A DNA stretch of 64,000 nucleotides from Acidobacteriota bacterium (lineage in GTDB: Bacteria; Acidobacteriota; UBA6911; RPQK01; JADFOI01), in assembly GCA_963663035.1 (NCBI GenBank), contig OY760074.1, forward strand, positions 2,240,001 to 2,304,000. Reading direction: 5' to 3'. Shown piece by piece: positions 4,339 through 56,490 of this stretch. The notes beneath the pieces are model-generated. The model had not been told where the DNA came from. It searched no databases and saw nothing but the letters and a program-made list of their open reading frames with translations. Within the stretch, counting starts at the first letter, position 1. Each line of letters starts with the position of its first letter. The position numbers and the translations under genes were made by a program.

Positions 4339-4608
4339 GTACTCCCTTTGAAAAATACGATGACGTTTGCGGATGGGGCTTGCGAGGCGAGGTCGCGAAG
4401 GGAGGAGGAGGCGATGCAGAGACATCGACGACGACGAGAGACAAAGAGATCGCCCGCAACCCCCATCCGCCCAAAGGGTTGGGGCGGGATGGGCCCATCT
4501 CTTTGTTGCTCCTCCTCGCCGATGTCTCGACATCGACTCGTCGTCGCGCCTCGATCTGGGCTCCGTCGCGCTCCCAACAAACGTCATCGTATTTTTGAAA
4601 GTGAGTAC
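4339..4608. mobile_element. MITE family B copy 1 (270 bp)
   Basis: About 30-bp terminal IRs GTACTC(C/A)CTTT(G/C)AAAAATACGATGACG, flanked by TAA/TAA. The interior recurs at four other loci. Confidence 0.85.
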
Positions 4609-4613
4609 TAAAG

Positions 4614-4928
4614 ATGGTCTGGATCAGCAGGATTCTTTATTTTCTTCTCTTGTTGGTCGGCTTCAGATTGATCGGCTCCTTTTTCGCCCGAGTTTTCACT
4701 GCATCGAAGAACGCAAGAGCCAGATCAGGTGCCGGCTCAAACCAAGCTGGAAAAACGATTGCCGGTCAAATGATCAAGGACCCCCAATGCGGCATGTACG
4801 TCGCCACGGACTTGGCGGTTGCGGCGGAAGTGAACGGACAAACTTTTCACTTTTGCTCCGAGGAGTGCCGCAATCACTTCATCAACGAGCAAGTGAGGAA
4901 CAACCGAACTAACAGACAAGCGGTGTGA
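4614..4928 (+). CDS. YHS/TRASH-domain membrane protein
   Basis: N-terminal TM helix, then DPQCGMYV...FCSEEC. Confidence 0.8.
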   Translation: MVWISRILYFLLLLVGFRLIGSFFARVFTASKNARARSGAGSNQAGKTIAGQMIKDPQCGMYVATDLAVAAEVNGQTFHFCSEECRNHFINEQVRNNRTNRQAV

Positions 4929-4974
4929 CCATGCCCGTGGTTTCCTGCACCACCCTGCCACGAGGGCCCTTTCT

Positions 4975-5829
4975 GTGAAAATTGGTATCGTAGCTAAACC
5001 CCACAGCACGAATTTTGCTGCCACTCTGGAGGAAGTCTTGACGTGGCTGCGAGCTCGGGGCTGCGAGATCATTGTGGAGGACAGCATCGTTCAGACTGTG
5101 AAGCTGAAGGACGTGGTCACCGCAACTCGGGAGAAACTTGCAGAGCTAGTGGATGTCATCGTGGTCTTCGGTGGGGACGGCACCATGCTCTCCGTGGCGC
5201 GGTCTATTCAAGGTCGCGCCACTCCGATTCTCGGCGTCAATATGGGTTCTCTGGGATTCCTGACCGAAATAACGCTGGATGAACTCTATCCTACACTGGA
5301 GCAGCTGTTGGAAGGCAAGCACACGATCGATCGCCGTAGTATGCTCAAAATTGAGGTCCTGAGCACCAACGGTTCAGTGAGAACCTACCACGCCCTCAAC
5401 GACGCCGTCATCAACAAAGGAGCGATGGCCCGGATCATTAGCATGGACACATTTGTCAATGAGGACTTCATTGCTAATTTTCCGGCCGACGGGATGATTA
5501 TCTCCACTCCTACAGGCTCTACAGCATATTCTCTGTCAGCCGGCGGTCCAGTCCTCTATCCAACCCTTGACTCCGTGGTGCTGACTCCCATTTGTTCCCA
5601 CACACTGACCAATCGTCCCTTGGTGATTCCGGCGGAAAACAGCATTCGTGTGGTGGTGAAATCCGGTGAAGATGTCATGTTGACGGTTGATGGCCAGGTG
5701 GGGGTGGCCTTGAAGGAGGGAGAAGAGATTCGCTGTTCCCAGTCAGACTATCGGATCGAACTGATTCAGCCCGGCAATAAAGGCTTCTTCGATGTTCTCC
5801 GGGAGAAGTTAAAGTGGGGAGAAAGGTAG
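4975..5829 (+). CDS. nadK: NAD(+) kinase
   Basis: GGDGT, GVNMGSLGFL, LND and STPTGSTAYSLSAGGP motifs. Confidence 0.95.
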   Translation: MKIGIVAKPHSTNFAATLEEVLTWLRARGCEIIVEDSIVQTVKLKDVVTATREKLAELVDVIVVFGGDGTMLSVARSIQGRATPILGVNMGSLGFLTEITLDELYPTLEQLLEGKHTIDRRSMLKIEVLSTNGSVRTYHALNDAVINKGAMARIISMDTFVNEDFIANFPADGMIISTPTGSTAYSLSAGGPVLYPTLDSVVLTPICSHTLTNRPLVIPAENSIRVVVKSGEDVMLTVDGQVGVALKEGEEIRCSQSDYRIELIQPGNKGFFDVLREKLKWGER

Positions 5830-5847
5830 AGCTCGCTACGCGGGCCT

Positions 5848-6891
5848 ATGCAATTCGGAATCGTTCTGGACAGCATCTTTACACGCCATTCTACGCCAGC
5901 AGGGCATCCAGAACGGCCCGCGCGGATTGAGGCAATCCTGGAAGCCGTTGAAAGGTGGGACCAAACCCGACAGTTAGTGCGAATCGCACCCAGCCCTGTG
6001 CCAGAGGAGTCGATCCTTGCCGTGCACACCAGCGAGCACTTTCAAGGCATCCGGCGCACGGCTGGGCAGAGCGTTGCTCAGCTCGATCCGGATACCTACA
6101 CCAGTCCTGATTCATTCCAGACTGCCATTCTGGCAGCCGGAAGCGTTGTGACTCTCCTGGACCAGTTACTGGAAAAGCACATCGACTCTGGATTTGCCCT
6201 GATTCGGCCACCGGGCCACCATGCTGAGAGCAACCGGGCGATGGGATTTTGTCTCCTCAACAACGTCGCGGTTGCTGCCGAGTGGGCTATCAGCAACGGT
6301 GGGTTAGAGAAGGTGGCCATTGTTGATTTTGACGTCCACCACGGAAACGGAACTCAGGAGATCTTCTACTCGCGGTCCGATGTACTCTACCTGTCCACCC
6401 ATCAGTATCCCTTTTACCCAGGGACCGGTCATTTCAATGAGATGGGTGAGAGTCAGGGTGAAGGCTTCACCGTCAACTTTCCGCTTCGCGCCGGCGGTGG
6501 AAATCATTTTTACTGCTCTCTCTTCAGTGACTTCGTGCTTCCTATGATTCGCCAATTTGATCCCAACCTGATTTTGGTTTCAGCCGGCTACGATGCCCAC
6601 AGGAGTGATCCCCTGGCCGGCATGAATCTCGAAACAGAGGGATTCGGTCAGCTCTTCAATCTGCTCAACTCCGTAGCACAAGAGATTTGTGAGGGTCGTA
6701 TCGTGTATGTCCTGGAAGGAGGGTACAACTTGAAGGCCTTGTCGGAGGCCGTTGTCTGTTCCATTGCCACAACAGTGAATCCCCAAAACTTTCCAATCCA
6801 GGAGGAGCAGGCCGTGGAATACATGAATTATCGAGAACAGGCACGGCAGGTTTTCTCGCGCCACTGGGAAGTGGGGAACGCTAACCACTGA
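5848..6891 (+). CDS. Zn-dependent histone-deacetylase-family protein
   Basis: HPERP, RPPGHH, DFDVHHGNGT, SAGYDAH and LEGGY motifs. Confidence 0.93.
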   Translation: MQFGIVLDSIFTRHSTPAGHPERPARIEAILEAVERWDQTRQLVRIAPSPVPEESILAVHTSEHFQGIRRTAGQSVAQLDPDTYTSPDSFQTAILAAGSVVTLLDQLLEKHIDSGFALIRPPGHHAESNRAMGFCLLNNVAVAAEWAISNGGLEKVAIVDFDVHHGNGTQEIFYSRSDVLYLSTHQYPFYPGTGHFNEMGESQGEGFTVNFPLRAGGGNHFYCSLFSDFVLPMIRQFDPNLILVSAGYDAHRSDPLAGMNLETEGFGQLFNLLNSVAQEICEGRIVYVLEGGYNLKALSEAVVCSIATTVNPQNFPIQEEQAVEYMNYREQARQVFSRHWEVGNANH

Positions 6892-6942
6892 CCACTGACC
6901 ACTGACCACTGACAACTGACAACTGACAGCTGACAGCTGACA
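6884..6942 (+). repeat. Heptamer tandem repeat (ACCACTG)4(ACAACTG)2(ACAGCTG)2
   Basis: Read directly from the sequence; it contains the stop codon of the deacetylase gene. Confidence 0.95.
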
Positions 6943-6949
6943 TGGGAGT

Positions 6950-7723
6950 TCAGAAGTCGGGCTGGCCGGCTCTTTCCCAGGCCATCCACCACAGGGAGCC
7001 CACTCGATAAGCGGCTTGATTCAAGCGCTCTTCCACGACCGTTCCCACTTGGTCAAACAGAAGGCTGAAGTACTGATCAGGGTATTGCTTTCGGTCTATT
7101 CCCAATTCTGAAACGATCCGTCGATCGGCCAGGAGAATCTTCTCCACCCACTGGTGACTCTCCAGAACAATATCGTAAAGCGTCGGCTGTACCTGTCCAA
7201 GATCGGTTGGAGCGGATTCCGAAAAATGAATCTGGTCAAGATTGAAATTCACCAGGTCACTTTCAAATCGAGCATGGAGCCCCACCTGTCCCGTGAGCTG
7301 ACCGTCGAAGTTCTCGGTGGTATGAAAAGGTTGGTGAAGATCAGCCACATAGTGGGAGAGATCTGAGCCGTAAAGCAAGATCTGTTCAAGATCCCGGCGC
7401 TGGAAGGCTTCGACCAGTCGGTTGAAGGTCCCGTGCGCTGCCCACAGGCCGGTCCCGTTTCTCTGTACTGTCTCTTCCCCCAACTGACCGACTAACTGGC
7501 CGTAATCCAGTTCGAGAAGGGAGAAGGGGAACTCACCATATCGTTCCAGATCAACAAAGTGGCGAGAGGATTCCTCCGGATCCCGATCCTTTCGGTAATC
7601 AGGGACCATGGTTTGCGCAACGACGCTGCTGCGGTGCTTCGAAAGGAGCTCTTCGAGATGCCCCTCGAGGTTATCGATAGCCCTGTTGGTCACCCAGTGG
7701 TGCCCGCTGGGACCCCAGGCCAA
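6950..7723 (-). CDS. S1/P1 nuclease / Zn phospholipase C-like protein
   Basis: Mature N-terminus WG..GH, plus HFVD, HYVADLHQPFH and H..FES Zn-ligand motifs. The start is uncertain (see findings). Confidence 0.85.
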   Translation of the reverse strand: MAWGPSGHHWVTNRAIDNLEGHLEELLSKHRSSVVAQTMVPDYRKDRDPEESSRHFVDLERYGEFPFSLLELDYGQLVGQLGEETVQRNGTGLWAAHGTFNRLVEAFQRRDLEQILLYGSDLSHYVADLHQPFHTTENFDGQLTGQVGLHARFESDLVNFNLDQIHFSESAPTDLGQVQPTLYDIVLESHQWVEKILLADRRIVSELGIDRKQYPDQYFSLLFDQVGTVVEERLNQAAYRVGSLWWMAWERAGQPDF

Positions 7724-7776
7724 ACACTCCGATGTGAAAAAAACACAGAAGCAGACAATCGAAAAGAGGGGAAGGC

Positions 7777-8055
7777 TTAGACTGCCTGTTGGAATTTTCG
7801 TTTCAACTCCTCAGGCAGTCGATAGACGATCTGGCACGTTTCGCACTTGAGAAGAATAAGTTTTGGATCTTCCGGAAACTCTTGCCTGATCTCTTCGCGC
7901 AACTGCTTATCCGGCTCGTTGTAGTAACCGGCGAAAGGATGGTAGCGCTTGAGCCCTCCATGGCAGGGCTTTCCTTTGCCACCTGGCGCGGTACAAACTA
8001 CCTGTTTCGGTACAAGGTCTTTGATCACAGAATTCCCCCTGTTAAAGCTCTCCAT
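7777..8055 (-). CDS. Small Cys-containing (Zn-ribbon-like) hypothetical protein
   Basis: C-x8-C...CxxC pattern; lies co-directionally between polX and the nuclease gene. Confidence 0.6.
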   Translation of the reverse strand: MESFNRGNSVIKDLVPKQVVCTAPGGKGKPCHGGLKRYHPFAGYYNEPDKQLREEIRQEFPEDPKLILLKCETCQIVYRLPEELKRKFQQAV

Positions 8056-9876: not shown

Positions 9877-11229
9877 CTAGTCCCGCAACCGCAGCAGCCG
9901 CTCGGCGGCCGCATGCAACACATCCATGGATTTACAAAAGGCGAAACGAATAAACCGTCTGCCCATTTCGGGTCGATGATAGAAACTACTGCCCGGCACT
10001 GCGGCAACCCCGTAGGTCTTAACCAGTTGATCGACAAATCGAACGTCATCCAGATCTGTCAGTGGCGAGATGTCGACCATAATGTAGTAGGCACCAGATG
10101 GTGTCCAAACCTTGAACCCAACTTCTTGCAGCCTCCCCACCAGATAATCCCGGCGCTCTCGATATTCTGAGGCCAGCTGCTTGTAGTACTGCCGATCCGT
10201 CCCCATTGCCTTAGTACTCCCTTTCATAAATACGGTAACGTTTGCGGATGGGGCTTGCGAGGCGAAATCGCGAAGAGAGGAGGAGGCGATGCAGAGACAT
10301 CGACTCGTCGTCGCGCCTCAATCTGGGCTCCGTCGCGCTCCCAACAAACATTACCGTATTTATGAAAGTGAGTACTCATCACCAGCTTCCTGCAAAGGAG
10401 CGGCCGCTCCAACCGTCAGGAAATCATGAATCTTGCGGATGCCGTCGGTGAGATCCGGGGGCGCGATAATGTATCCAATCCGCCAGCCCGTCACACTGAA
10501 GGTCTTGGAAAGTCCGCTGATGGTGATGGTCCGGTCCCTCATCCCGGAGAAGAGTGCAAGGGGATGATGACACTGACCGTCATAAACAATGTGCTCATAG
10601 ATCTCATCGGTAATGACGTAAAAATCGTAAGTCTTGGCAAGTGCAGACAGCTGTCCAAGTTCCTCCCGGAAAAACACCTTTCCTGAAGGATTGTTTGGAG
10701 TATTGAGTATCAGGGCACGGATCCCCCCCTGGGACTGGGCCTCTTGAATCTTCTTTTCGAGTTCCTGAAAGTCGAAGGTCCAATCGCGATCCGGGTCAAG
10801 GGCAACATAGAGGGGTGAAGCACCGGCAATGATGGCATCGGGACCATAGTTTTCATAAAAGGGCTCAAAGACAAGCACTTGATCTCCAGGATTGACCAGC
10901 GCCAGAATCGAAGAAATCATGCACTCGGTCGCACCACAGGCCACCGTGACTTCTCTTTCAGGGTCAATCTCCCAGTCATAGAATTCCCTGTACTTTTCAG
11001 CAATTGCCTGCCGGAGTCCAGCGGCACCCCAGGTAATGGCGTACTGGTTAATATCGTCTTGAATCGCCTGGCAAGCAGCGCTCTTAATCTCCTGAGGCGC
11101 TGGGAAATTAGGGAATCCTTGAGCCAGATTAATGGCATCATATTGCATCGCAAAACGCGTCATTTCTCGAATGACAGATTCGGTAAAGTGGGTGACCTTC
11201 TGGCTGGTCCGATGGGGTGACGTCGGCAT
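9877..11229 (-). pseudogene. PLP-dependent class I/II aminotransferase split by MITE B copy 2
   Basis: AINLAQGFP, NTPNNPSG, DEIY and SKTFSVTGWRIGY lie in the 5' part, and the C-terminus (IRFAFCK) lies in the same frame beyond the insert. Confidence 0.88.
10214..10375. mobile_element. MITE family B copy 2 (162 bp, internal deletion)
   Basis: Same IR family as copy 1. It lacks 108 bp between two GACATCGAC direct repeats and is flanked by TTA/TCA. Confidence 0.88.
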
Positions 11230-15154: not shown

Positions 15155-15163
15155 AAGGGGTAG

Positions 15164-15401
15164 CCCGCATTGCTCACACCAGCTCGTGGCGAAGCGGCGG
15201 AAGGGCTGGAAAACAGAGCCGTGGGCTTTAGCCCACGGGCCCGCAGGCTAAAGCCTGCGGCTCCGACTGGCGCGCGAGGGGTACCCGCAAACGTACTCTT
15301 GAGTACGTTGAGGAGCCGAGGGGTACCCGCTTGCGGGTCGCGCAACACAGTCAGGTCGGCTCATTGCGCCGATGCAGTAGAGCAGGTGTGAGAAGTGCGG
15401 G
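15164..15401. mobile_element. MITE family A copy 2 (subtype carrying a REP doublet)
   Basis: IRs CCCGCATTGCTCACACC and rc CCCGCACTTCTCACACC, family A core, and internal GGGCTTTAGCCC palindromes. Confidence 0.85.
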
Positions 15402-15402
15402 C

Positions 15403-16599
15403 TCAGAGACTCACCGCCGAGGTCGACGCATTGTAACACTCGGTTGCAGCCTCCACCCCGGCTCCCTGGGCGCAGTGAAAGCCCTGCCTGCGCAAGCAGG
15501 TCTCCAGAGCGAAAAGAAAGTAGAGCACATTCTGAGCCTGGCTGTTCTCCCCCATCAACCCCACTCGCCAAACCTTCCCCTTCAAGTCACCCAGACCTCC
15601 GCCGATTTCCAGATTGAACTGGCTCAGCAGCTCACTTCGAACTTTCCCATCATCCACACCGGCAGGGATGCACACCGTATTCAACGACCACAGACGATAT
15701 TCGGGGTCTACGTGCATCTGCAACCCCAGTCCCTCGAATCCCGCCACCAGAGCTGTGTGATTTTGCCGGTGGCGATCGAAGCGTTCCTCCAGTCCCTCTT
15801 CCACAATGATCTTCAGCGCTTCACACAAGGCATAATTCATCGAGATGGGTGCCGTGTGATGGTACGCCCGCTCCTCACCCCAATAGGACCGGAGGAGGTT
15901 AAAGTCCAGGTACCAGCTTCTGCATGGGCTGGTGCGGGTTTTCAACTTCGCTTCAGCCTTGGGAGAAAGGGTAATGGGCGCAAGTCCAGGAGGACAGCTC
16001 AAGCACTTTTGAGTCCCGCTGTAACAAATATCGATACCCCAGGAATCGACTTCGACGGGGTGTCCTCCCAGAGAGGTCACGGCATCCACCAGCAGCAGTG
16101 AATCGAGGCTGTTACAAATTTCCCGGATGGGCTCCAAAGGTTGGAGGACTCCGGTGGAGGTTTCAGCATGCACGACGGCTATGATGCTCGGTTGGCACTT
16201 CTGGGCGGCCTCAAGCATGGCTTTCCCGCCGAGAGGCTCACCAAAGGGAGCGGAAACCACCGTGCAGTCACCGCCATTCCGGCGGACCATCTCTGCGATC
16301 CGCTGCCCGAAAACCCCGTTGACACCAACCAGGACAGACTCTCCCTCCTCAACAAAATTGGCGACTGAGGCCTCCATCCCAGCAGTTCCAGTTCCTGACA
16401 GTGGAATGGTGAAAGGGTTGCCGGTTTGAAAGACGCGCCGCAGAAGGTCCTGAATTGTATTCATGATCTCCACGAACTCGGGATCGAGATGACCGACCAG
16501 CGGCCGGCTCATGGCTCGAAGGACCCGAGACGGCACATTTGATGGCCCCGGTCCCATCAACAACCTTCCTTCTTTGCCCTTCTGTGTCAGTCTCTTCAT
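15403..16599 (-). CDS. Alanine-glyoxylate / serine-pyruvate aminotransferase (class V)
   Basis: [27 protein letters not shown] and YHHT motifs. Confidence 0.92.
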
Positions 16600-22694: not shown

Positions 22695-22788
22695 TGACCT
22701 GCCCCCACGAACGAGTCCACCCTCTATGCTAGACCCGGGACCATTTGAAGTCCACTCCAAGGGATTGGATCCAGTGCCTGCGACCTAG

Positions 22789-24427
22789 CCCGGATTATTC
22801 ATAAATTCTGAAGAAGGGGTCTGATCGAGGGCACAAAAAGATGCCGTACCTCTTTGATATAAAAGGGGTTATGAAACAACTCCAAACCAAAAAGGTACGG
22901 CCCAGCGATGCATCAGTCTGCCAGATCAACTTGCCATCTCACCCTGACAGAAAAGTGGTGGCTCGATTCGATGGAGGCCGGCTCTCCTCCGATGCCGGGC
23001 TGCTGTGTCTGTACGCCCTGGATCAACAGCACGGACTGACGGCTGGCTTTGCCTCCTGCCTGAAGGACGCTCGAGATAGCCGCTACGTCCGCCACCAGAT
23101 TCGCGAACTGCTCACCCAGCGCAGCTTTCAGATCGTGGCCGGCTATGAGGACTGCAACGATGCCGACAGCTTGCGCTCGGATCCCATCTTCAAGACCGTG
23201 TGTGATCGGCTGCCGGAAAGCGATCCGGATCTGGCTTCTCAACCCACGCTGTCGCGACTGGAGAACTCGGTGGACTCGAAGGATCTCACTCGCCTGGGAC
23301 AGTGGCTGCTGGAGACCTACTTGAAGCACCGCAAGAAGAGCCGGCCCGAGAAGATCATCCTGGACATCGACAGCACGGATGACGTCACGCATGGGCAGCA
23401 GGAGTTCAGCTTTTACCACGGCTATTATCGCGAGCACATGTATCATCCGCTGCTGCTATTCGATGGCGAGACGGGCGATCTGGTATGTGCGCTACTGCGG
23501 CCCGGCAACCAGGGGGCGGCCGCCCACGCGGTGGCGGTTCTCAAACGGGTGGTGGCCCGGATGCGCCAGGTTCTGGGATCCGATGTTCCGATCGAAGTGC
23601 GAGCCGACAGTGGCTTTGCGACGCCGGCACTGTACGAGTTCTGTGAGGAGGAAAAACTGCAGTATGTGGTGGGCTTTGCCCGCAACTCCCGGCTGGCGGC
23701 CACCGTCGAGCCCTTGGTTGAGCAGGTGCAAGCAGACTATGACGACTCAGGAGAAAAGCAACGCCAGTTCACCGAGCTCGTCTATCAGGCCGACAGTTGG
23801 GACCGGGAGCGGCGCATGGTGGCCAAGGTGGAAGTGAGCGAGCGCGGGTTCAACCGTCGCTTTGTGGTCACCAACCGCCAGGATCTCACGGCCGGGCAGC
23901 TGTATGACCACTACATCGGACGGGGCCAGTGCGAGAACTTCGTGAAAGCTTTCAAAAAAGATCTGGCCATGGATCGCTTGAGCTGCCACCGTTTCCTGGC
24001 CAACCAGTTCCGACTCTTCATCCACGCCCTGGCCTATGTCTTAATCCTGCGCCTGCGGGATTACCTGTGCGGGACTCCCTGGCACAACCTGGAGATTGAG
24101 ACGCTCCGCCGCCGCCTGTTCAAAATCGGTGCCCGGGTTCGGGAAACTTCTCGTCGCATCTGGGTGCACCTGGCATCGTCTTATCCCGAACAAAAGCTCT
24201 TCGCATTACTGATGCACCGTCTGTGTCCCACCTGACGGTCCCCTGACTCCCTGCGCCAACACAGATATACAGCCCCCTGCGGGCCGAGCTGTTTCCGGAA
24301 GGGGCTCTCGCTTCATCTCTATTCGGCTCAACAAGCTTGGACGCCTTGTAATCGCACCTGAACACACTCTCAGCCCTGAACTTCCGCAGAAAATCGACAC
24401 TCACCCCAAACTTATGAATAATTGCGG
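22789..24427 (+). mobile_element. IS1380-family insertion sequence
   Basis: IRs CCCGGATTATTCATAA and rc CCGCAATTATTCATAA, with a CTAG duplication at 22785-22788 and 24428-24431. Confidence 0.92.
22841..24235 (+). CDS. IS1380-family DDE transposase
   Basis: FDGG.LSSDAG, GYED.ND, LDIDST, RADSGF and Y..RG..EN..K motifs. Confidence 0.93.
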   Translation: MPYLFDIKGVMKQLQTKKVRPSDASVCQINLPSHPDRKVVARFDGGRLSSDAGLLCLYALDQQHGLTAGFASCLKDARDSRYVRHQIRELLTQRSFQIVAGYEDCNDADSLRSDPIFKTVCDRLPESDPDLASQPTLSRLENSVDSKDLTRLGQWLLETYLKHRKKSRPEKIILDIDSTDDVTHGQQEFSFYHGYYREHMYHPLLLFDGETGDLVCALLRPGNQGAAAHAVAVLKRVVARMRQVLGSDVPIEVRADSGFATPALYEFCEEEKLQYVVGFARNSRLAATVEPLVEQVQADYDDSGEKQRQFTELVYQADSWDRERRMVAKVEVSERGFNRRFVVTNRQDLTAGQLYDHYIGRGQCENFVKAFKKDLAMDRLSCHRFLANQFRLFIHALAYVLILRLRDYLCGTPWHNLEIETLRRRLFKIGARVRETSRRIWVHLASSYPEQKLFALLMHRLCPT

Positions 24428-25263
24428 CTAGGTAGTTTGGCCTCTGGCGCCGGCGGCCGATAGGCCAAGGCGCTGTGAGGCCGGATCTGATTGTAATCCC
24501 TCCGCCAGCGTTCTACCAACACCTTGGCTTCCCCCAGCGTGTCGAAGATCTCCATGTTCAGCAGCTCATCCCGTAGTTTCCCGTTGAAACTCTCAATGTA
24601 CCCATTCTCCCAGGGGCTGCCCGGCTCGATGTACAAGGTCCTTACCCCAACAGCCTGCAGCCAGTCCCGGACCGCCTGTGCCGTAAACTCCGATCCGTTA
24701 TCGGACCGGATAAACTCAGGCACTCCCCGATCAACGAATAACTCCGCCAGCCGGTCCAACACGTCTTGGCGATTCATCTGCCGTTTCACATCAATGGCGA
24801 GGCACTCTCTGGTGTACTCATCCAGGATCGTCAATAGCCGAAAGGCTCGCCCATCATGGGTCCGTTCATGCACGAAATCATAGCTCCAGACGTGGTTCTT
24901 GCGAGCCGCTCGTAACCGAACACAGGAACCGTCATTAAGCCACAGCCTCCTTCGTTTCGGCTGTCTGGACGGGACTTTCAGCCCTTCTTGTCTCCACAGC
25001 CTCTCCACCCGCTTAGGATTCACCTTCCACCCTTCCCCATGAAGTATCGCCGTGACCCGCCGGTAGCCATAACGCCCGTATTGCGTAGCCAACTCCACCA
25101 TCCGGGCCACCAATCGGGCCTCATCATCGGGAATTTGCCTTTCCCTTCGCTGGGTCGATCGAACCTGTCCCAGCACTTGGCAGGCCCGACGTTCGGAGAC
25201 TCGCTCTGCTCCTAATCGCTCTCGTACCCACATCACCGCTCGTCTCCTGTTCGCCGGGTCTAG
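24412..25263 (-). CDS. IS3 OrfB transposase (DDE); native C-terminus displaced by IS1380
   Basis: YGYRR, WSYDF, SDNG.EF, PW.NG.IESFN and RPHSAL motifs. Confidence 0.9.
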
Positions 25264-25538
25264 AAGTTTCCCGAGGACACTTCCTTCAGGATCTGCTTGT
25301 CCAAAGACAGATCCGCCACCAGCTTCTTCAACCGGGTATTCTCCTTCTCCAACACCTTCAACCTCTTGGCCTGGTCCAACCGGAGCCCTCCGTACTCTTT
25401 GCGCCACCGGTAGTAGGTCTGCTCGCTCACCCCCATCTGCTTCGACACCTGTCCCACCCTCTGTCCTTGGGCCAGACCCACCTCTGCCTCACGCAGCTTC
25501 ATGATGATCTGTTCTGCCCTAAACCGCTTCCCTGCCAT
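25260..25538 (-). CDS. IS3 OrfA (HTH protein)
   Basis: [21 protein letters not shown] pattern and a leucine zipper. Confidence 0.9.
25266..25272 (-). promoter_or_regulatory. -1 frameshift slippery heptamer G-GGA-AAC at the orfA/orfB overlap
   Basis: The plus strand reads GTTTCCC, an X-XXY-YYZ pattern at the end of orfA as in IS3 elements. Confidence 0.75.
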
Positions 25539-28943: not shown

Positions 28944-28949
28944 TGAAAG

Positions 28950-29094
28950 CCCGAACGATGCATAGGTTTTCGTAACGAGGCGCCGAAAGCGCCGTCCTGA
29001 CCAGGCGCGCGAGGGGTACCCGCTTGCGGGTCGCGCAACGCAGTCAGGGCGGATGATTAGGGAGCCACAGTAGAAAATCTATGCATCGTCCGGG
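28950..29094. mobile_element. MITE family A copy 3 (145 bp, central hairpin deleted)
   Basis: IRs CCCGAACGATGCATAG and rc CCCGGACGATGCATAG. The deletion falls between the AGGGGTACCCGC repeats seen in copy 1. Confidence 0.85.
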
Positions 29095-29106
29095 CTAAGC
29101 CGCATC

Positions 29107-31844: not shown

Positions 31845-31915
31845 AGTTCTCCGGCTCAATCTCCTGAAAAACCGAGGGCAGCGGATTTTGCCGTTCGGAG
31901 AGAGTTTGGAATATG

Positions 31916-32089
31916 CCCGGAGTATGCATAGGTTCTCGTCATGAAGCGGCGAAAGCGCCGGCCTGACAAGGCGCGCGACGGAAGCCCCCGCAAACGTACT
32001 CTTGAGTACGTTGAGGAGGCTGATCGAGTGCAACGCTGGCAGGGCGGATGATTTCGCTGCTGCAGTAGAGAATTTATGCATATTCCGGG
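31916..32089. mobile_element. MITE family A copy 4
   Basis: IRs CCCGGAGTATGCATAG and rc CCCGGAATATGCATAA, with the family A core. Confidence 0.85.
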
Positions 32090-32108
32090 CAAACAGACAC
32101 GGCCCTGA

Positions 32109-36343: not shown

Positions 36344-38770
36344 ATGTTTGGCCCGCACTTCTCACACCTGCTCTACTGCATCGGCGAAATGATCCGACCT
36401 GACTACGTTTCACGACCCGCAAGCGGGTACCCCTCGGCTCCTCAACGTACTCAAGAGTACGTTTGCGGGGGCCGACCCGTGGCGGGTGCCCCTCGCGCGC
36501 CAGTCGGAGCCGCAGGCTTTAGCCTGCGGGCCCGTGGGCTAAAGCCCACGGCTCTGTTTTCCGTCCCTTCCGCCGCTTCGCGACGACCTGGTGTGAGAAA
36601 TGCGGACTTTAGCGGCTGGACTCAAAAAGTACACCTGCTCCTGGGGATAGCGCTGCTGGGATGCTGGTGGACACAGGATATCTTTGGCGCCGACGAGGAG
36701 AAGACACTCACCGCGCTCTACATCACCTCTCCAATTGTGGTTGACGGAACCCTCGACGAGGCGGAGTGGAGCCTTGCACAGCCAGCCACTGATTTTATTC
36801 AGACCGAGCCCAGAGAGGGAGAACCGGCCACAGAACCCACCGAGGTACGGCTTCTTTATGACGATGAGTACCTCTATGTCGGGGTCTATTGCTTTGACTC
36901 GGCGGGTCAAGAGGGTCTCGTTGTGACCGACGTGAGAAGAGATTACCCCCCTGCTCAAACTGATCACTTCGCAATGCTGCTGGATACCTTTGACGATAAT
37001 CGCAACGGCTTTCTCTTCGGTACTAACCCGGCAGGAGCCATGCGCGAGGGTCAGATAGGAGGAGACGGTCAGACTACCAACTTTGATTGGGACGCCGTTT
37101 GGTCCGTGAAGACCAAACTCACAGACTCGGGCTGGCAGATTGAAATGGCGATTCCCTTCAAGACCTTACGCTTCCGGGACAACGAACGCCAGACTTGGGG
37201 AGTGAATTTTGTGCGACGGATTCGTCGCAAGAACGAAGACACCCACTGGACACACATTCCACGTCCTTACCGAATGAGCAGGGTCTCACTGGCGGGTGAA
37301 CTGGACGGCATTAGCGGTATCCGTCAAGGGCGTAACCTTTATTTCAAACCCTACCTCTTAGCTCCTGTCTTGCGCCGTGAAGGGGATGACATCGATTTTC
37401 TTCCCGATGCGGGTTTTGACGCCAAATACGGAGTCACTTCAGGCCTGACCCTGGATTTGACTGTCAACACCGACTTTGCCCAGGTTGAAGCGGACCAGCA
37501 ACAGATCAATTTGACTCGATTCAGCCTCTTTTTTCCCGAGAAGCGCGAGTTTTTCCTGGAAAACTCCAATATCTTTGGGTTTGGCACCCCGGCCAGAGGG
37601 TTTCGCGCTTCGCGCGACCTCATTCCTTTTTTCAGCCGCAGGATTGGCATCTCCGGAGGCGATCTGGTGCCCATCCTGGGAGGCCTCCGCCTCAGCGGAA
37701 CCGCTGGCAAATATCGTGTGGGCGTTCTTTCCATGCAGACCGATGAATTCGAAGACACTCCGACCACCAACTTTTCCGTGGCCCGGGTTCGCCGAGATCT
37801 CTTTCTCAACTCAGACATCGGTGCCATCTTTGTCAACAAACAGGTCAGCGGCGGCGAGTTTAATCGCACCTACGGCCTGGATACCAATTTGAGCTTCTTT
37901 CGATATCTGGACATTTCTTCTTTTCTGCTGAAAACCGCTACCACCGGGGAGCAAGGCAAGGATGCGGCTGGGAGTTTCCGCATCAGTTGGAATGACCGGC
38001 TGTTCGATATCCATGGTGATCATCTCTCCATCCAGGAGAACTTCAATCCCGAAGTGGGCTTTGCGCCCCGCAAAGGGATTCGAAAAAGTACAGGAACATT
38101 CACTGTTCGACCAAGACCTGGGGAGAGGATCCCCTGGATTCGGGAGTTTCGACCCAACATTGGAATTGAGTACCTGACCAACCAGGAGAACTTGCTGGAG
38201 ACTCGAATCATTACCCAAAATGTGCAGGTTTCATTTGAGAACAGCAGTAGCCTGTGGTTCACCCGCCGGGAGAACTTCGAACGTCTGGACGAAGCTTTCG
38301 AGATCCGGGATAATCAACTCATCCCGGCCGGTGACTATTCAACCACGGACTACAACTTTTCCTTTAACAGCGACAGGAGTCGCATGTTCAGAGGCAATCT
38401 CACACTCAGGACAGCTAGTTTCTGGGATGGCGAAAAGGATTCCCTCCAGCTGGGATTTGGGTTCCAGCCGGGCTACCAGTTTGGAGCCGAGGTCTCCTGG
38501 GCCCATGACGACATCTCTCTGCCCTCAGGGAACTTCAAAACCAACCTGGTAACGACACGCTGGCGCTATTCCTTCAGCCCCATTATGTTCTTGAACGCGC
38601 TGATCCAGTACAACGATACCAGAGAGGAAATTGCCAGCAACCTCCGCTTCAATTTTACCTACAAACCCCTCAGTGATTTCTTTCTGGTCTACAATGAGAG
38701 GCGCAGCACCACCGGAGAGGTCACGGAGAGGGCCTTGATCGGGAAGCTCACCTACGTCTTTGACTTCTAG
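36344..38770 (+). CDS. CBM9-like plus DUF5916-like outer-membrane protein, with an in-frame MITE near its start
   Basis: DG.LDE..W, E..IPF..LRF and N.DF.QVEAD...NL.RF..FFPEKR.FF.E motifs, and a C-terminal Phe. Confidence 0.75.
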   Translation: MFGPHFSHLLYCIGEMIRPDYVSRPASGYPSAPQRTQEYVCGGRPVAGAPRAPVGAAGFSLRARGLKPTALFSVPSAASRRPGVRNADFSGWTQKVHLLLGIALLGCWWTQDIFGADEEKTLTALYITSPIVVDGTLDEAEWSLAQPATDFIQTEPREGEPATEPTEVRLLYDDEYLYVGVYCFDSAGQEGLVVTDVRRDYPPAQTDHFAMLLDTFDDNRNGFLFGTNPAGAMREGQIGGDGQTTNFDWDAVWSVKTKLTDSGWQIEMAIPFKTLRFRDNERQTWGVNFVRRIRRKNEDTHWTHIPRPYRMSRVSLAGELDGISGIRQGRNLYFKPYLLAPVLRREGDDIDFLPDAGFDAKYGVTSGLTLDLTVNTDFAQVEADQQQINLTRFSLFFPEKREFFLENSNIFGFGTPARGFRASRDLIPFFSRRIGISGGDLVPILGGLRLSGTAGKYRVGVLSMQTDEFEDTPTTNFSVARVRRDLFLNSDIGAIFVNKQVSGGEFNRTYGLDTNLSFFRYLDISSFLLKTATTGEQGKDAAGSFRISWNDRLFDIHGDHLSIQENFNPEVGFAPRKGIRKSTGTFTVRPRPGERIPWIREFRPNIGIEYLTNQENLLETRIITQNVQVSFENSSSLWFTRRENFERLDEAFEIRDNQLIPAGDYSTTDYNFSFNSDRSRMFRGNLTLRTASFWDGEKDSLQLGFGFQPGYQFGAEVSWAHDDISLPSGNFKTNLVTTRWRYSFSPIMFLNALIQYNDTREEIASNLRFNFTYKPLSDFFLVYNERRSTTGEVTERALIGKLTYVFDF
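36352..36606. mobile_element. MITE family A copy 5 (inverted, REP-doublet subtype, 255 bp)
   Basis: Near reverse complement of 15164-15401, with IRs CCCGCACTTCTCACACC and rc TCCGCATTTCTCACACC. Confidence 0.85.
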
Positions 38771-50550: not shown

Positions 50551-50565
50551 TGGCCGCCCAGCTAA

Positions 50566-50837
50566 GTGCTCCCTTCCAAACATACGGTGATGTTTGCGGA
50601 GAGGGCTTGTGAGGCAAGGTCAAGGAGCGAGAAGGAGGCGATGTCCCAGGACATCATCGACGACGAGCGACGAAGAGATTGACCGCAACCCCCCTCCGCC
50701 CAAAGGGTTGCGGCGCTGCGCCTCCATCTTCTATGTTGCTCCTCCTGGGCGATATCCCGTATCGACTCGTCGGAGCGCCTTGAATACGGGGGCGGAGCGC
50801 TAGCAACAAAGATTATCGTATGTTTGGAAGTGAGCAC
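50566..50837. mobile_element. MITE family B copy 3 (diverged)
   Basis: IRs GTGCTC(C/A)CTTCCAAACATACG at both ends; the interior is homologous to copy 1. Confidence 0.82.
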
Positions 50838-50980
50838 TATGACGTGTCGTCACTTGTCGGAGTGTAAACTTCCGTTGACACTTTCGCAGGCCTCGACGGT
50901 TCCAGGTGTATCCCAAGACTCGCCTATAACTCCAATTATTACAATAGCTTAATAGCATTCTACCAGTAATCCTTCATCTC

Positions 50981-50996: not shown

Positions 50997-51278
50997 CTAG
51001 TAAGGAGACTGATGTGTCGTCCTTGAGTTAAACCGGCCATACATACCGATCAAAGCTGCTTTGGCTCGCGAACTGAAATGACAAAAGAGGGAGGTAGAAT
51101 TTGTTTCAACCGATGAAATCAGTCTTGTGGTCTGATTGATGGAGAACCTGCTAGGGTTTCCCATCAATCGAATCCTAAAGACACACGACCGGCAGGTGTG
51201 CGCCCTACAGAATCTGTCTAGGGCGCACGACCCTGTTTTCCTCAGGCCCTCCTACAACTCAGCCCCGATAACTACTAG

Positions 51279-51317
51279 CCCGGATGACGCATATATTCTC
51301 TACTGCAGCGGCGAATC
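51279..51317. mobile_element. One-ended remnant of MITE family A
   Basis: CTAG|CCCGGATGACGCATATATTCTCTACTGCAGCGGCGAA resembles the end of copy 6 (CCCGGATTATGTATAAATTCTCTACTGCAGC). Confidence 0.65.
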
Positions 51318-52151
51318 CACGGAAGCGGCTCGTTTGCGCCCTCCTGCCACCAGATAGACTACCGACCCAATTCCCCACAGCAACAAAGTAAAAATCAGGC
51401 CTTCGACCACATGACCGAACATGTGCCCCCAAGTGTTCGCTTCCTGTGGACCCGGATGACGCATATAGTACTGCAGCGGCGTAGCGGCTCGTTTGCGCCC
51501 TCCTGCCACCAGAAGTACCGACCCAATCGATGCCCCCAAGTGTTCGCTTCCTGTGGACCCGTGTAGTAAGTATCGATTCCTCCAAAGTCATCGATGGCAA
51601 TGCCGAGAATCACAAACAGCATGGCGGAGAAAGCAAACAAAGCAGCCAGAACAAGTAGATCGCGAAAAGTCCCCCCCCCGGCGTGCCACTGCCACGGAAT
51701 AGATCAGCATAATGATGGGGAGCAGTATGGTGAGGCTCACCCAGTTCGTCCCTTGCTCAGAAGGAATCTGAAAAAGGGGTTGGAGTAGAAAGCGCACTAT
51801 CGCCATCAGCAGCAGTAGTCCTATTCCCACGCGAGCGTCTCTCAGTACTCACTTTCATAAATACGGTAACGTTTGTTGGGAGCGCGACGGAGCCCAGATC
51901 GAGGCGCGACGACGAGTCGATGTCGAGACATCGGCGAGGAGGAGCAACACAGAGATGGGCCCGTCCCGCCCCAACCCTTCGGGCGAATGGGGGTTGCGGG
52001 CGATCTCTTTGTCTCTCGTCGTCGTCGATGTCAGGACATCGCCTCCTCCTCCCTTCGCAACCTCGCCTCGCAAGCCCTATCCGCAGACGTGATCGTATTT
52101 ATGAAAGGGAGTACTAAGGTACTGACTAAACGGTTTGTCAAAAAGCTTCAT
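51300..52151 (-). pseudogene. Membrane-protein gene disrupted by MITE B copy 4, a G9 frameshift and a partial duplication
   Basis: Reconstructs to MKLFDKPFSQYLRDARVGIGLLLL...GGTFRDLL...GPQEANTWGHMFGH...DSPLQ, with an AAGGAA RBS. Confidence 0.7.
51845..52114. mobile_element. MITE family B copy 4 (inverted, 270 bp)
   Basis: Near reverse complement of 4339-4608, flanked by TCA/TAA. Confidence 0.88.
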
Positions 52152-54428: not shown

Positions 54429-55095
54429 TCTTAACCGTCGCCTCACTGCTCTGGTACTGAACCAGAAACTCCAGGAGTTGGATTTGCTCCCCCTCTTCCA
54501 TCTGAAGGAACTCGAGAGCAACTTCATTGAGAGGTTTTCCGTCGCGTTGGGTTGGATGCGATCGAACCACCCATCCGACGGCATTCAGGGGATGGGAGTC
54601 GGGAAAATAGAGGTTGATCTCCAGCTTATCTCCCGCTTTCAAGAGAAGGCTGGTCTCAAATAACAACCCGCCCACACTGATATTTTCGGTCTCGGAGTTG
54701 ACAACTCTCTCGCCGTTGAGTTGTGGGTCGGCAGCGTCAATGACGGTAAACCAGAAAGGAATGTGCATGTTCAGCCGAGGGGACTTTCTCCGCTGCACGG
54801 TTATCCCTTTATCATGAACTGAGATGGCCAAGTGTCGTTTGCCGGAGGAAGCAAGGTTGACGACCTCGCCCTCCCAGTAATAGACAACAGCCTCTTCATC
54901 CCAGTATTTGAGTCGAACCTTCTCTCCTTCCTGAAACAGGTCCTGTGAGGTGGGTCTGGCAAGCTCCAACCAGATTTCAGCTGGAGAGCTTTCTACGATA
55001 GTAGCGGCGAGAGTCTCCTTCGAGTCCCCCTGGATGGAGATAGCTAGCCCTGCCGTCGGGTACTGGCCGAGGCCAGCAACGCCCTTGTCAATCAT
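54382..55095 (-). CDS. PilZ-domain (YcgR-like) c-di-GMP receptor
   Basis: QRRKSPR (RxxxR) and ENISVGG (NxSxxG) motifs. Confidence 0.85.
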   Translation of the reverse strand: MIDKGVAGLGQYPTAGLAISIQGDSKETLAATIVESSPAEIWLELARPTSQDLFQEGEKVRLKYWDEEAVVYYWEGEVVNLASSGKRHLAISVHDKGITVQRRKSPRLNMHIPFWFTVIDAADPQLNGERVVNSETENISVGGLLFETSLLLKAGDKLEINLYFPDSHPLNAVGWVVRSHPTQRDGKPLNEVALEFLQMEEGEQIQLLEFLVQYQSSEATVKNARTKGSSADQPGHL

Positions 55096-55167
55096 TTGCC
55101 CTGCCTTTCAAGGCTCTAGAGTACTCAATACTACCACAGGGGTCTGCACGAGAAGGCGCTTCCTGCC

Positions 55168-56211
55168 CTAGGTTTTGATCTGCAGTTGCACTTGCTCGAT
55201 TCCCGCCACTATCAGGACCCACTGAAGCTGCATCTGGTCCCGAATCGGCATGGCTCTCAAACCTCTCTGCGACGCGTCTTCGCCAACAGCGGTGGACACA
55301 TTCTGCTCGGACCCTAATCTGTCCTTCCATTCTTCAATCAGCTCTTTCCATCGTAAAGCTTCTGGATCGGGAGGACCCAGAGTTTCACCCACTTTCGGGA
55401 GGATAAACAGCGGCATTTCAGTGACAAGGGTGAGCGGATCACCCCCCACAGAACGAATCGTCTCCATCGAACTGGGCCGGAACTTTCTGGCAGTGAGTTC
55501 GTCCTGACGATCAAGAAAAAACTGGGTCATCGCTTTCGAATCAGGGCGAGTGCAAAATCCCTCTTCAAGCCGGCGGAATCCTTTCTCACCCTGACGGTCG
55601 ACGTCATGAAGGCGATATCCCAATTCTTTCACGGCTCGTCTGCATTTGGCTTTCAGCTCTTCACAGCGCGACAACCAGGCAGGTTCGATCAAAAACCAGG
55701 GTCCACCTGCAAATGCTATCCCATGTAAAGAGACATGAAGGTGGAATGAGTCCTCGGCCTTCATCCACCAGGCGGCAACGCTCTTATTCTCGGGCCGCGC
55801 ATCCACATCCCTCCGATCACGGGGAAAACCGAACTCGATGTCATCACCGGGAAGCTCGCGTCTCACCTGACTGAGATATTGAATGAAGTCGATTTGTTCG
55901 TCCCGGTCCCGGTACCATGAACGATTCACCGCTTCTCCGTCAGGGTTAGCATGGGGAACGATCCACCACTGATAATCTTCTAGAACCGGTGAGTGCTTCG
56001 GAAGATGAGAGAGATAGGAGACGAAGTGCCTCAAAAAGCGAGGACCGACTGGCTCGTCGGCATGACATCCAGCGATGAGGCTGATTCGGAATGCCCCCTG
56101 GCCCAAACAATAACCGGCCAAGGATCTCCGCTCCCGGGAGTAGCCGATCAGTTCTCCCTGGGGAAGAGAAGCTGGCGAAGCAGTCACGATTTCTTGGAAA
56201 AGCTCCTGCAT
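55168..56211 (-). CDS. M14-family zinc carboxypeptidase-like protein
   Basis: IG.SRE.R, HADE (HxxE), NPDG and SLHG motifs. Confidence 0.8.
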   Translation of the reverse strand: MQELFQEIVTASPASLPQGELIGYSRERRSLAGYCLGQGAFRISLIAGCHADEPVGPRFLRHFVSYLSHLPKHSPVLEDYQWWIVPHANPDGEAVNRSWYRDRDEQIDFIQYLSQVRRELPGDDIEFGFPRDRRDVDARPENKSVAAWWMKAEDSFHLHVSLHGIAFAGGPWFLIEPAWLSRCEELKAKCRRAVKELGYRLHDVDRQGEKGFRRLEEGFCTRPDSKAMTQFFLDRQDELTARKFRPSSMETIRSVGGDPLTLVTEMPLFILPKVGETLGPPDPEALRWKELIEEWKDRLGSEQNVSTAVGEDASQRGLRAMPIRDQMQLQWVLIVAGIEQVQLQIKT

Positions 56212-56217
56212 GCTTTA

Positions 56218-56490
56218 GTGTCTCGTCCCATGAATACCATAACGTTTGTGGCGAGCGCGACGGCAACGAGTTCACGAAGCGACGACGACGCGATGTCTGT
56301 GTGCATCGCGGAGGAGGAGCGACAAAGAAATTGATGCCGTCCCGCCGCCACCCTTCGGGCTGATGGGGGTTGCGGGCGATCTCTGCGTCGCTCGTCGTCG
56401 CCAATGTCCCTGCATCACCTCCTCCTCGCTCCTTGATCTCCCCTCCCAAGCCCCATCAGCAAACGTCATGCTATTCATGGGACGAGATAC
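56218..56490. mobile_element. MITE family B copy 5 (inverted, diverged)
   Basis: IRs GT(G/A)TCTCGTCCCATGAATA at both ends; the interior is homologous to copy 4. Confidence 0.8.

Follow-up and report, generated by a model that had tools for sequence, protein, structure and literature searches.

Background

Insertion sequences of the IS1380 family (IS1380, ISEcp1; ISfinder) have tips that start with CC and produce a 4-bp target duplication. In Escherichia coli, quasipalindrome template-switch mutagenesis makes imperfect inverted repeats perfect, acting in short patches and on any type of substitution, and has been described for short stems with short loops. REPINs, in the part of Bertels and Rainey (2011; PMC3116915) drawn on here, are non-coding doublets that are mobilised by a RAYT tyrosine transposase and form a long hairpin in single-stranded DNA or RNA, while their singlets and remnants decay. 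Bcr1 of the Bacillus cereus group is presented, in the portion of Delihas (2011; PMC3184786) used here, as a transcribed mobile repeat of about 155 bp with 5-bp target duplications, in which compensatory changes keep the double-stranded structure.

The window analysed here, a stretch of 64,000 nucleotides from an uncultured marine Acidobacteriota (genome G000), contains copies of two repeat families, A and B (Table 1), both of which are non-coding, non-autonomous miniature transposons (MITEs). They resemble REPINs in being hairpin-forming doublets with decaying remnants, but the ends of family A are DDE transposon ends and not REP sequences. The two PF01797 (Y1-transposase) matches in the genome, at 346 kb and 2.32 Mb, have their nearest A copies at 7.1 and 31.9 kb and their nearest B copies at 21.7 and 53.0 kb; an association with RAYTs was rejected, as no copy of either family lies within 7 kb of either gene. 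One of the two Y1-transposase genes is flanked by a different, REP-like repeat. With bcr1 the families share mobility and compensatory changes that preserve double-stranded structure; however, bcr1 is reported as transcribed in the text cited above, whereas A and B are known here from DNA sequence, and the changes that appear identically at both ends of a copy (hereafter mirrored changes) concentrate in transposase-type tips. The difference from quasipalindrome mutagenesis is that the arms of A and B lie 100-230 nt apart, and that homogenisation is weakest in the shortest palindromes of the family (26 nt).

The common view of transposon ends is that they are binding sites for proteins and decay each on its own, whereas here the two ends evolve as a pair. 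Such paired-end evolution is known from folded mobile repeats, REPINs and bcr1 being similar in this, and the present case adds a well-quantified example. The data set (about 240 copies in a single genome) is large enough to part subfamily descent from true mirroring.

Results and discussion

Families A and B and the resident IS1380-type element

Family A occupies 204 loci in G000 and ranges in size from 149 to 272 nt, while family B has about 55 loci. Each family comprises four subfamilies with their own end pairs. End statistics for family A are based on 181 copies out of 189 full-length matches, five being unanchorable and three having short flanks. Among the window copies, A2 has two additional hairpin modules and is missing at the matching site of the sister genome G002, B2 lacks the central 110 nt, and the tandem duplication behind the family A fragment is not found in other strains.

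Table 1. Mobile elements of the window, with left end and reverse complement (rc) of the right end where given
Element	Position	Strand	Description	Ends (left / rc right)
A1	2665-2873	+	family A, subfamily S4, 209 nt	TTATTCAT / TTATTCAC
B1	4338-4609	+	family B, subfamily Ba, 272 nt	AAAAATACGATGACG on both ends
B2	10213-10376	+	family B, short 164-nt form	CATAAATACGGTAA on both ends
A2	15162-15404	+	family A, subfamily S2, CACACC-type ends	TTGCTCACACC / CTTCTCACACC
Resident insertion sequence	22787-24429	+	IS1380-type, one of 28 near-identical full copies	
A3	28948-29097	+	family A, 149-nt basic form	ACGATGCATAG / ACGATGCATAG
A4	31914-32094	+	family A, subfamily S4, 181 nt	TATGCATA / TATGCATA
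A5	36349-36608	-	family A, subfamily S2, 260 nt; 94-95% complementary to A2	
B3	50565-50838	+	family B, subfamily Bd	GTGCTC.CTTCCAAACATACG on both ends
Family A fragment	51276-51560	+	right-end fragment, then 107-nt tandem duplication	
B4	51844-52115	-	family B, subfamily Ba; 94% complementary to B1 over 272 nt	
B5	56217-56491	-	family B, subfamily Bb, GTCTCGTCCC-type ends	TCTCGTCCCATGAATA on both ends
A6	58909-59119	-	family A, subfamily S4, 211 nt	ATGTATA / ATGTATA

The open reading frame of the resident insertion sequence (IS; 22841-24235) encodes a 464-aa DDE transposase that matches PF13701 (DDE_Tnp_1_4) with 505.9 bits over profile positions 5-430 of 435. The genome has 34 matches to this family, of which 28 are full-length copies. 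The ends are CCCGGATTATTCATAAATTC and CCGCAATTATTCATAAGTTT with CTAG on either flank, and CTAG stands on both sides of 25 of the 28 copies (CTAA on both sides of one). The DDE_Tnp_1_4 transposase, the tips starting with CC and the 4-bp target duplication, here CTAG at the autonomous copies, are all IS1380-like. We therefore take the element to belong with IS1380 and ISEcp1, assuming the family features as given in ISfinder.

Family A shares its first 16-17 nt with IS1380-type ends from this genome and from other Acidobacteriota metagenome-assembled genomes (MAGs), and the S4 ends, CCCGGATTATGCATAGG and CCCGGATTATGCATAAATTC, are terminal inverted repeats in common with the resident element. The resident IS probably drives family A or is a cousin of the element that does. 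Family A nevertheless differs from IS1380-family elements in three ways: it is long and imperfectly palindromic over its whole length, and its hairpin modules are exchangeable; its two ends agree more closely than do those of the resident IS; and CTAG is kept on both sides in only 15/181 copies (left 71/181, right 42/181), the inner AG/CT being retained in about 94% of the ends. The empty sites in G000 carry CTAA- or CTAC-like words, junction mapping being imprecise. For family B, an nhmmer search of this genome combined with a fuzzy search for conserved end words found no autonomous partner; the end words occur in the genome only in B copies, short forms and solo ends.

Subfamily founders and the co-variation of ends

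According to the initial annotation, the two ends of each element co-vary, so that every copy has its own matched pair. All nine end pairs quoted there (A1-A4, A6, B1-B3 and B5) are present in the sequence, and the co-variation extends genome-wide through the 181 family A copies: the left end equals its own right end at position 5 in 176/181 copies (96.4 when shuffled) and at position 13 in 175/181 (98.1 when shuffled). The accompanying premise, that independent point mutation cannot give this pattern, is borne out as well. Within the A subfamilies, 121 cells show the same change at both ends, 18 show different changes at both ends and 237 are one-sided, against 27.8 both-changed cells expected under independence. 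This expectation is built on per-position rates, and parallel changes at mutation hot spots are rejected for the same reason. Moreover, ends cluster by copy within subfamilies: over positions 3-17 a left end lies at a mean distance of 1.19 from its own right end, but of 2.11 from those of the other copies in its subfamily.

Two layers can be told apart. In the first, subfamily founders with matched end pairs explain most of the listed co-variation. A2, B2 and B5 show the consensus ends of their subfamilies (Ba for B2), and the ends of A4 are near the family A consensus, TATGCATA being that consensus itself. Only A1, A3, A6, B1 and B3 carry copy-specific mirrored changes among the quoted pairs: G>T at end position 13 of A1, which gives the base of the resident IS ends; positions 9, 10 and 22 of A3; C>T at position 14 of A6; a private AAAAA at the left and right ends of B1; and a private CCAAACATACG at those of B3. 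Subfamilies explain much of the list because cognate insertion sequences exist for some variants. For instance, the S4-type end CCCGGATTATGCATAA is the inverted repeat at both ends of an IS1380-type element (L094) in another Acidobacteriota MAG, and the T13 of A1 is found in the resident IS. For the CACACC type, no IS was found in this genome or among the best 80 of 582 transposase relatives.

Private changes mirrored between the ends

In the second layer, single copies show an identical private substitution left and right at roughly eight times the frequency that independent mutation would give. Family A has 82 mirrored against 230 one-sided changes after removal of six hybrids; between one and three mirrored changes are present in 60/175 copies, and most of these changes are singletons. 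Family B has 18 mirrored against 74 one-sided changes, with 7.6 both-changed cases expected under independence.

One explanation would extend the founders to the whole pattern: each pair is inherited from a founder fitted to one transposase variant, and the apparently private variants are unsampled lineages. The four A and four B subfamilies with their own end pairs and the IS with S4-type ends in another MAG are in its favour, as is T at position 13, which is mirrored in three non-hybrid copies and is the resident IS base. We nevertheless consider it quite unlikely. It leaves unexplained how a founder came by an identical change left and right, the tips of the resident IS are themselves unmatched, and the mirrored changes of the 60/175 copies are mostly singletons. 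Furthermore, of the 15 genomes searched, the 14 others of the family lack the doubly mirrored variant GCCGGGCTTATCCATA, which is restricted to the two ends of a single copy, and the CACACC type has no IS within the searches described above. Adaptation to different transposase variants, one of the causes first suggested for the pairs, fits the subfamily layer but fails for the mirrored changes. Transposase fit cannot account for the latter, because the very active resident IS has mismatched ends (at three of the first eight positions, with at least 28 moves) and GCCGGGCTTATCCATA is confined to a single copy. Since IS relatives, which have propagated one-sided end variants to eight, four and three copies, and the resident IS move with unmatched ends, paired ends are no general need of this transposase.

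Folding and strand bias

Both families are predicted to fold as very stable rods or Y shapes in which the terminal inverted repeats close the stem. Predicted RNA folding energies are -87 to -132 kcal/mol, and A3 folded as DNA is a rod (z = -6.5). Predicted pairs tend to change together: in the 149-nt form of A (46 sequences, 50 pairs) 164 cells are doubly changed against 41.6 +/- 4.9 in shuffled data, and in B (37 sequences, 62 pairs) 208 against 78.9 +/- 9.0, values that none of 300 shuffles reached in either family. The four B copies compared within the window show a kept double change in 21/88 predicted pairs.

Counted by cells, one-sided transitions favour a top-strand G.T by 80 to 42, and counted by distinct events by 45 to 25 (n = 70, p about 0.02); among the standing differences between arms the wobbles number 337 on the top strand against 45 on the bottom strand. 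The bias tracks the element's own top strand independently of replication direction (48:28 and 32:14 in the two classes) and of gene direction (22:13 and 19:8).

We tentatively favour the reading that end pairing is maintained in a fold-back of the top strand, with selection for the closing stem as its cause, and we hold it with somewhat less than even confidence. With the element's own top strand folded back on itself as a single strand, base pairing between the ends would be what is preserved, presumably through selection among copies for a paired closing stem. Pairing would be restored site by site, because the tip side of mirrored sites has no deficit of mismatches (20 observed, 18.8 expected) and the adjacent positions 18 and 19 mostly change singly (right-end AG in 18 copies, GA in nine, GG in two). 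Given the same single changes and the absence of any tract signature, simple arm-to-arm conversion or homogenisation in long tracts is not supported.

Orthologous copies and internally deleted remnants

Thirty G002 copies have both flanks mapped; the G000 site is empty for 12, shared for seven and unclear for 11. The in-place comparison is a small sample, with seven shared insertions in a fragmented G002 assembly, six of them aligned at the ends, and it leaves out the other sister genomes, which are 75-84% identical. In these six pairs, end positions 1-24 contain 10 substitutions, none of them mirrored. We also identified 31 internally deleted 26-nt remnants, in which changes are mostly one-sided and only four have perfect arms. 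On the favoured reading, pairing would therefore be restored in transposing lineages and not in resident copies, because 0/10 substitutions are mirrored in the orthologous pairs and the remnants are mostly one-sided.

Six of the seven orthologous pairs contain inverted or swapped hairpin modules (276/203, 201/149, 223/208, 186/197, 207/202 and 217/148 nt), and repeat-mediated rearrangement is thus frequent in these elements.

Possible causes: selection for pairing or copying through the hairpin

Another possible cause is hairpin-templated copying, in which a mutation at one end is copied to the other in the folded element in one step and without selection for pairing. The route might be short-patch template switching, mismatch repair of the stem, or the resection of a 3' end that the transposase has made and that is paired with the other tip, followed by refilling. 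A fold-back copying step of this kind is nearly as likely as selection and fits the high rate of mirroring better. Mirrored pairs amount to about 0.45 per copy over about 22 pairs, so that the rate per pair nearly equals the one-sided rate per site, and if a mirrored pair is counted as one event, the outer stem and the unpaired sites evolve at 0.052 and 0.053 events per base, respectively. Under selection, mutation-limited compensation should be far rarer than this; for instance, the 149 nt of the copy at genome position 193776 contain, beside two mirrored pairs, a single further change that is truly private.

The position of the changes also favours copying. The mirrored share falls inward from the tips, from 18/41 (44%) at positions 3-6 to 42/159 (26%) at 7-14 and 13/79 (16%) at 15-24, although tip pairs add least to stem stability, and inner stems have far fewer private double changes per single change (0.08 against 0.55), both of which count against selection for pairing. 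Mirrored transversions are as frequent as transitions, modules are readily inverted or swapped, and of the nine or so distinct substitutions among the near-identical IS copies, one, present in two copies, gives left-end position 5 the base of the right end. The successful transposition of the resident IS with its mismatched tips and the spread of one-sided variants in its relatives weigh against selection too.

Copying has difficulties of its own. One-sided mismatches common to G000 and G002 (position 12 in L035, position 9 in L041) have stayed in place since the species diverged, 78/117 copies retain G.T wobbles at positions 18 and 19, the 26-nt palindromic remnants are not homogenised, and there is no tract signature. 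Moreover, the top-strand wobble bias is not predicted by copying unless one strand alone folds.

A more specific proposal, which we regard as unlikely, would have the DDE-MITE moved as a one-strand fold-back. The transposase-made 3' end of one tip would pair with the other tip, and mismatched bases close to this 3' end would be cut back and resynthesised on the opposite arm, each transposition thereby making one tip the exact complement of the other. This would jointly explain the tip gradient, the high rate and the strand-specific wobble bias, and also why long autonomous copies and dead remnants show no mirroring; if true, a DDE transposon family would have a step that is single-stranded and depends on a hairpin. 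More generally, a real pairing requirement would bear on the way in which a transposase made elsewhere captures short elements, and could tell live from dead copies in metagenome-assembled genomes.

Possible roles in host RNA

The rods could instead act as terminators or mRNA stabilisers at gene ends, with the stems under selection in the host. Of 165 intergenic A copies, 145 follow the end of at least one gene (55 in convergent and 90 in tandem contexts; gene orientation taken from a longest-ORF map and not from annotation), although CTAG targeting is enough to account for their position at stop codons. Between orthologous copies the arms diverge by about 4% (22/540), against 14.7% at third codon positions and 12.8% in other intergenic sequence; in place, however, no change is mirrored in the six pairs. 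Element-like contigs also occur in two metatranscriptome runs, as assembled contigs that pool many copies and organisms and may include DNA carry-over. Such contigs reveal neither the strand nor the ends of transcripts, and the contig cover in these two RNA libraries is no evidence of transcription.

The orientation of family A to flanking genes is random (46 to 44), and therefore a role in host mRNA is not supported. The wobble bias, likewise, follows the strand of the element and not that of the gene. As 12 of the 19 classifiable G002 copies are missing in G000, the copies are dispensable and young. Rfam covariance models at gathering score matched only a tRNA (61449-61522) in the 64-kb window, and no Rfam family corresponds to the elements. 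We hence judge a host-level RNA function very unlikely.

Origin of the 26-nt palindromes

We also considered whether the outer 17 nt might be a palindromic target into which the core inserted. This was rejected, for outer type and interior subfamily go closely together and the empty sites in G000 lack both the outer and the core parts. In addition, no type but ATGCAT has 26-nt palindromes, and in that type internal deletion is made possible by an 8-nt direct repeat. One 26-nt palindrome and the full G002 copy at the same site share a private base.

Two families of palindromic elements in the genome

The window spans G000:C1:2240001-2304000, and repeat finding in it revealed two families of short elements, the MITE families A and B, both non-coding and internally palindromic. 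Family A is represented there by six full copies and one fragment; family B has four full copies, each about 272 nt long, and a shorter 164-nt form. Profiles derived from these copies were used to scan the whole genome (a single contig of 3,594,683 bp, 54% G+C), and merging the strands gave 55 loci for family B (39 full length) and 204 for family A (189 full length). The family is present in 15 of the 21 related genomes searched, the one under study included, and in all six other genomes of the genus. Family A copies are predicted to form rods (-87 to -132 kcal/mol as RNA; z = -6.5 against shuffles for the DNA fold of A3), and the predicted fold of family B combines a closing stem of about 31 pairs with two long hairpins side by side.

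Cumulative GC skew places the origin of replication near 3.20 Mb and the terminus near 1.22 Mb. The orientation of family A is biased with respect to replication: of 181 copies, 110 have the lagging-strand sequence as their top strand and 71 the leading-strand sequence. Relative to the flanking genes the orientation is unbiased (46 to 44). Solo A-type tips also occur in the window, and a degenerate A-like tip (AGCCCGGGTTATGCAC...) adjoins the right end of B5. Next to the family A end fragment lies a 107-nt tandem duplication; contigs from two DNA runs join position 51423 directly to 51531, indicating that other strains lack it.

Family A shares its ends with an IS1380-type insertion sequence

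Family A has the ends of an IS1380-type insertion sequence. Apart from the MITE loci, its terminal words are found at the termini of a 1,643-bp element with 28 full, almost identical copies, whose 464-aa ORF matches Pfam DDE_Tnp_1_4 (506 bits). This resident element is flanked by CTAG on both sides in 25 of the 28 copies and by CTAA on both sides in one, which implies that the true element begins at CC and that AG/CT (positions 1-2, numbered from the outer tip inward) belongs to the target duplication. Among the best 80 of 582 loci, other Acidobacteriota MAGs carry transposase relatives (63-74% identity) with CCCGGATTATGCA... at their ends and with CTAG or CTAA duplications. One type of these insertion sequences (L094) carries CCCGGATTATGCATAA at both ends, the exact tip of the family A subfamily S4. 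The inner AG/CT is kept in about 94% of the MITE ends, and only 15 of 181 copies have the full CTAG at both flanks.

The 28 resident copies hold only about nine distinct substitutions; two copies share a C to G change at left-end position 5, which gives the right-end base. An IS3-type transposase gene abuts the IS1380-type copy in the window, the pair forming a 2.8-kb repeated block. About 180 repeated blocks of at least 600 nt occur in the genome, with size classes near 1285, 1390 and 1655 nt.

Locations of the features discussed (G000:C1, contig of the genome under study)
Feature	Location	Strand	Remark
Copy of the 1,643-bp IS1380-type element	window 22787-24429	+	
IS3-type transposase	window 24412-25407	-	331-aa ORF; rve, rve_3, HTH_21
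Solo A-type tips	window 14389, 17499, 36293		
107-nt tandem duplication	window 51324-51560		
Degenerate A-like tip	window 56492-56560		
Family B interior with triplet runs (example)	window 4400-4530		
Family A copy mirrored at positions 8 and 13	genome position 193776		
IS1380-type copies with the position 5 change	G000:C1:155030 and 3340579		
26-nt palindrome (example)	G000:C1:2123089-2123114		
161-aa Y1 transposase gene	G000:C1:346000-347300		IS200/RAYT-like
Family A copies orthologous with the sister genome (L020, L025, L027, L035, L041, L058, L075)			arms nearly identical

Two layers of co-variation between the ends

The initial annotation held that the two ends of each element co-vary, each copy having its own matched pair, and the end strings that it quoted were all present on reading the sequence. 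This co-variation is real and statistically solid, and most of it is ordinary MITE subfamily structure. When family A was grouped on interior sequence (left positions 25-40), independently of the tips, four groups of 57, 54, 32 and 38 copies emerged with their own tip pairs, GCCGGGATTATGCATA, GCCCGCATTTCTCACACC, GCCCGCATTATGCATA and GCCCGGATTATGCATA respectively; family B likewise comprises four groups (14, 15, 5 and 5 copies). This layer explains how A2 and A5 differ from the remaining A copies, and how B5 and B3 differ from B1, B2 and B4. Co-variation of subfamily depth is present in all stems, with 164 doubly changed cells in the 149-nt form of family A against 41.6 +/- 4.9 with shuffled partners (46 distinct sequences), and 208 against 78.9 +/- 9.0 in family B (37 sequences). 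None of 300 shuffles attained the observed value in either family, and the signal was lost when the partner was slid by 1-3 columns.

Beyond the subfamilies there is a residue of clean, quantified paired evolution of transposon ends. Changes were counted per cell within subfamilies, only at tip positions where the consensus ends agree. In the raw count for family A, both ends had changed in the same way (mirrored) in 121 cells and in different ways in 18, and 237 cells were one-sided; 27.8 both-changed cells are expected under independence. Six copies with at least four mirrored changes are subfamily hybrids and were left out of a refined count, in which the remaining 175 copies show 82 mirrored and 230 one-sided changes (one mirrored change in 41 copies, two in 16 and three in 3). 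Family B has 18 mirrored and 74 one-sided changes, with 7.6 both-changed cells expected. Within the window, private mirrored changes occur in A1, A3, A6, B1 and B3. One copy elsewhere combines mirrored pairs at positions 8 and 13 with a single other truly private change in 149 nt, and its 16-mer is found only at its own two ends and in none of the 14 other genomes with the family. That subfamilies alone account for the matched ends is thus improbable, although they make up most of the co-variation.

Transversions are as frequent as transitions among the mirrored changes. The mirrored share falls from the tips inward (18/41 at positions 3-6, 42/159 at 7-14 and 13/79 at 15-24), and there are 0.55 double changes per single change in the outer 17 pairs against 0.08 in the inner stems, whose pairs are taken from a predicted fold and could be partly in error. 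No tract signature appeared, as mismatches on the tip side of mirrored sites number 20 against 18.8 expected, and standing G.T pairs at positions 18-19 are mostly resolved singly. One-sided transitions leave 80 cells with a G.T wobble on the top strand of the element and 42 with one on the bottom strand (45 versus 25 distinct events). This bias persists whichever way a copy is oriented to replication or to its flanking genes, and is therefore a property of the element rather than of host replication or transcription; that the stems are kept for a role as host RNA seems most improbable of all.

Fit to the transposase was rejected as the cause of the private mirrored changes. The resident insertion sequence, whose tips mismatch at three of the first eight positions, reached 28 copies, and its relatives (best 80 of 582 loci) spread one-sided end variants in 8, 4 and 3 copies; moreover, a private change shared by the two ends of a single copy is not something that a transposase can demand. 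It may contribute at position 13, where a mirrored G to T change in three non-hybrid copies, A1 among them, gives the base of the resident element.

Mirrored changes in resting copies and in lineages

Searches of the sister genome, whose flanking genes are 88-93% identical, yielded 37 different family A copies whose flanks could be used, and both flanks could be mapped for 30. Of these 30 copies, 12 occupy sites that are empty in the genome under study, 7 are shared and 11 could not be assigned, so that turnover is fast. In the six shared copies with alignable ends, none of the 10 substitutions in positions 1-24 is mirrored, and some one-sided mismatches are common to both species and hence older than the split. 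Over the terminal 45 nt of both arms, 22 of 540 positions (about 4%) are different; divergence at these loci is 14.7% for third codon positions and 12.8% for other intergenic sites. In the centres, whole hairpin modules have been inserted, lost, swapped or inverted in six of the seven pairs; GGGGTACCCGC..GCGGGTC, for instance, occurs as its reverse complement.

Also present in the genome are 31 palindromes, 26 nt long and AGCCSGSATTATGCATAATSCSGGCT-like, each two family A tips fused at an ATGCAT core. At the site of one of them the sister genome has a full 206-nt copy with the same private base, and hence these palindromes are remnants of internal deletions. Their changes are mostly one-sided, and only 4 of the 31 have perfect arms. 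Although the sample is small, these comparisons point to mirroring arising in transposing lineages and not in resting copies.

What could keep the ends paired

Our data favour pairing of both ends as the preserved feature, which would take place as one defined single strand folds back on itself, and do not decide between selection and copying. Selection among transposing copies for a paired closing stem is a plausible but tentative reading. It fits the wobble bias, the persistent wobbles, the site-by-site pattern and the lack of mirroring in place; against it, mirrored pairs are, per pair, nearly as frequent as single changes per site, and mirroring is most frequent in the tip pairs, which contribute least to stability. 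Copying within the fold-back would fit both this rate and the tip-to-interior gradient, but neither the mismatches that persist nor the 26-nt remnants, whose arms are not homogenised; we regard it as somewhat less likely than selection.

Compensatory changes across the hairpin are described as common for REPINs in a passage of PMC3116915, and likewise for bcr1 repeats in a summary in PMC3184786. Family A was rejected as a REPIN, since its ends are DDE transposon ends and no A or B copies lie near either Y1-transposase gene of the genome. A limited literature search found no account of mirrored end substitutions in IS1380-type MITEs, and IS1380 is absent from the text of one review searched for the name.

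Further observations on family B and a Y1 transposase

A genome-wide profile search and a search for conserved end words found no partner element for family B. Read by eye in the window copies, its flanks look like T-N-A triplets. Many copies have GTAG-containing flanks that are themselves repeated. Eleven copies lie between divergent and four between convergent genes, and in tandem contexts 13 run along the gene direction and 3 against it. Inside the element, GAG GAG GAG runs stand opposite GAC GAC GAC runs; they mismatch at every third base in a simple rod fold, and each run pairs inside its own side hairpin in the consensus fold. One Y1 transposase gene has a third and distinct REP-like repeat on either side, in inverted orientation (GCCCCGAAGGGGC and CCCAGGGC..GCCTTGGG hairpins), and is a candidate RAYT with its own REPs.
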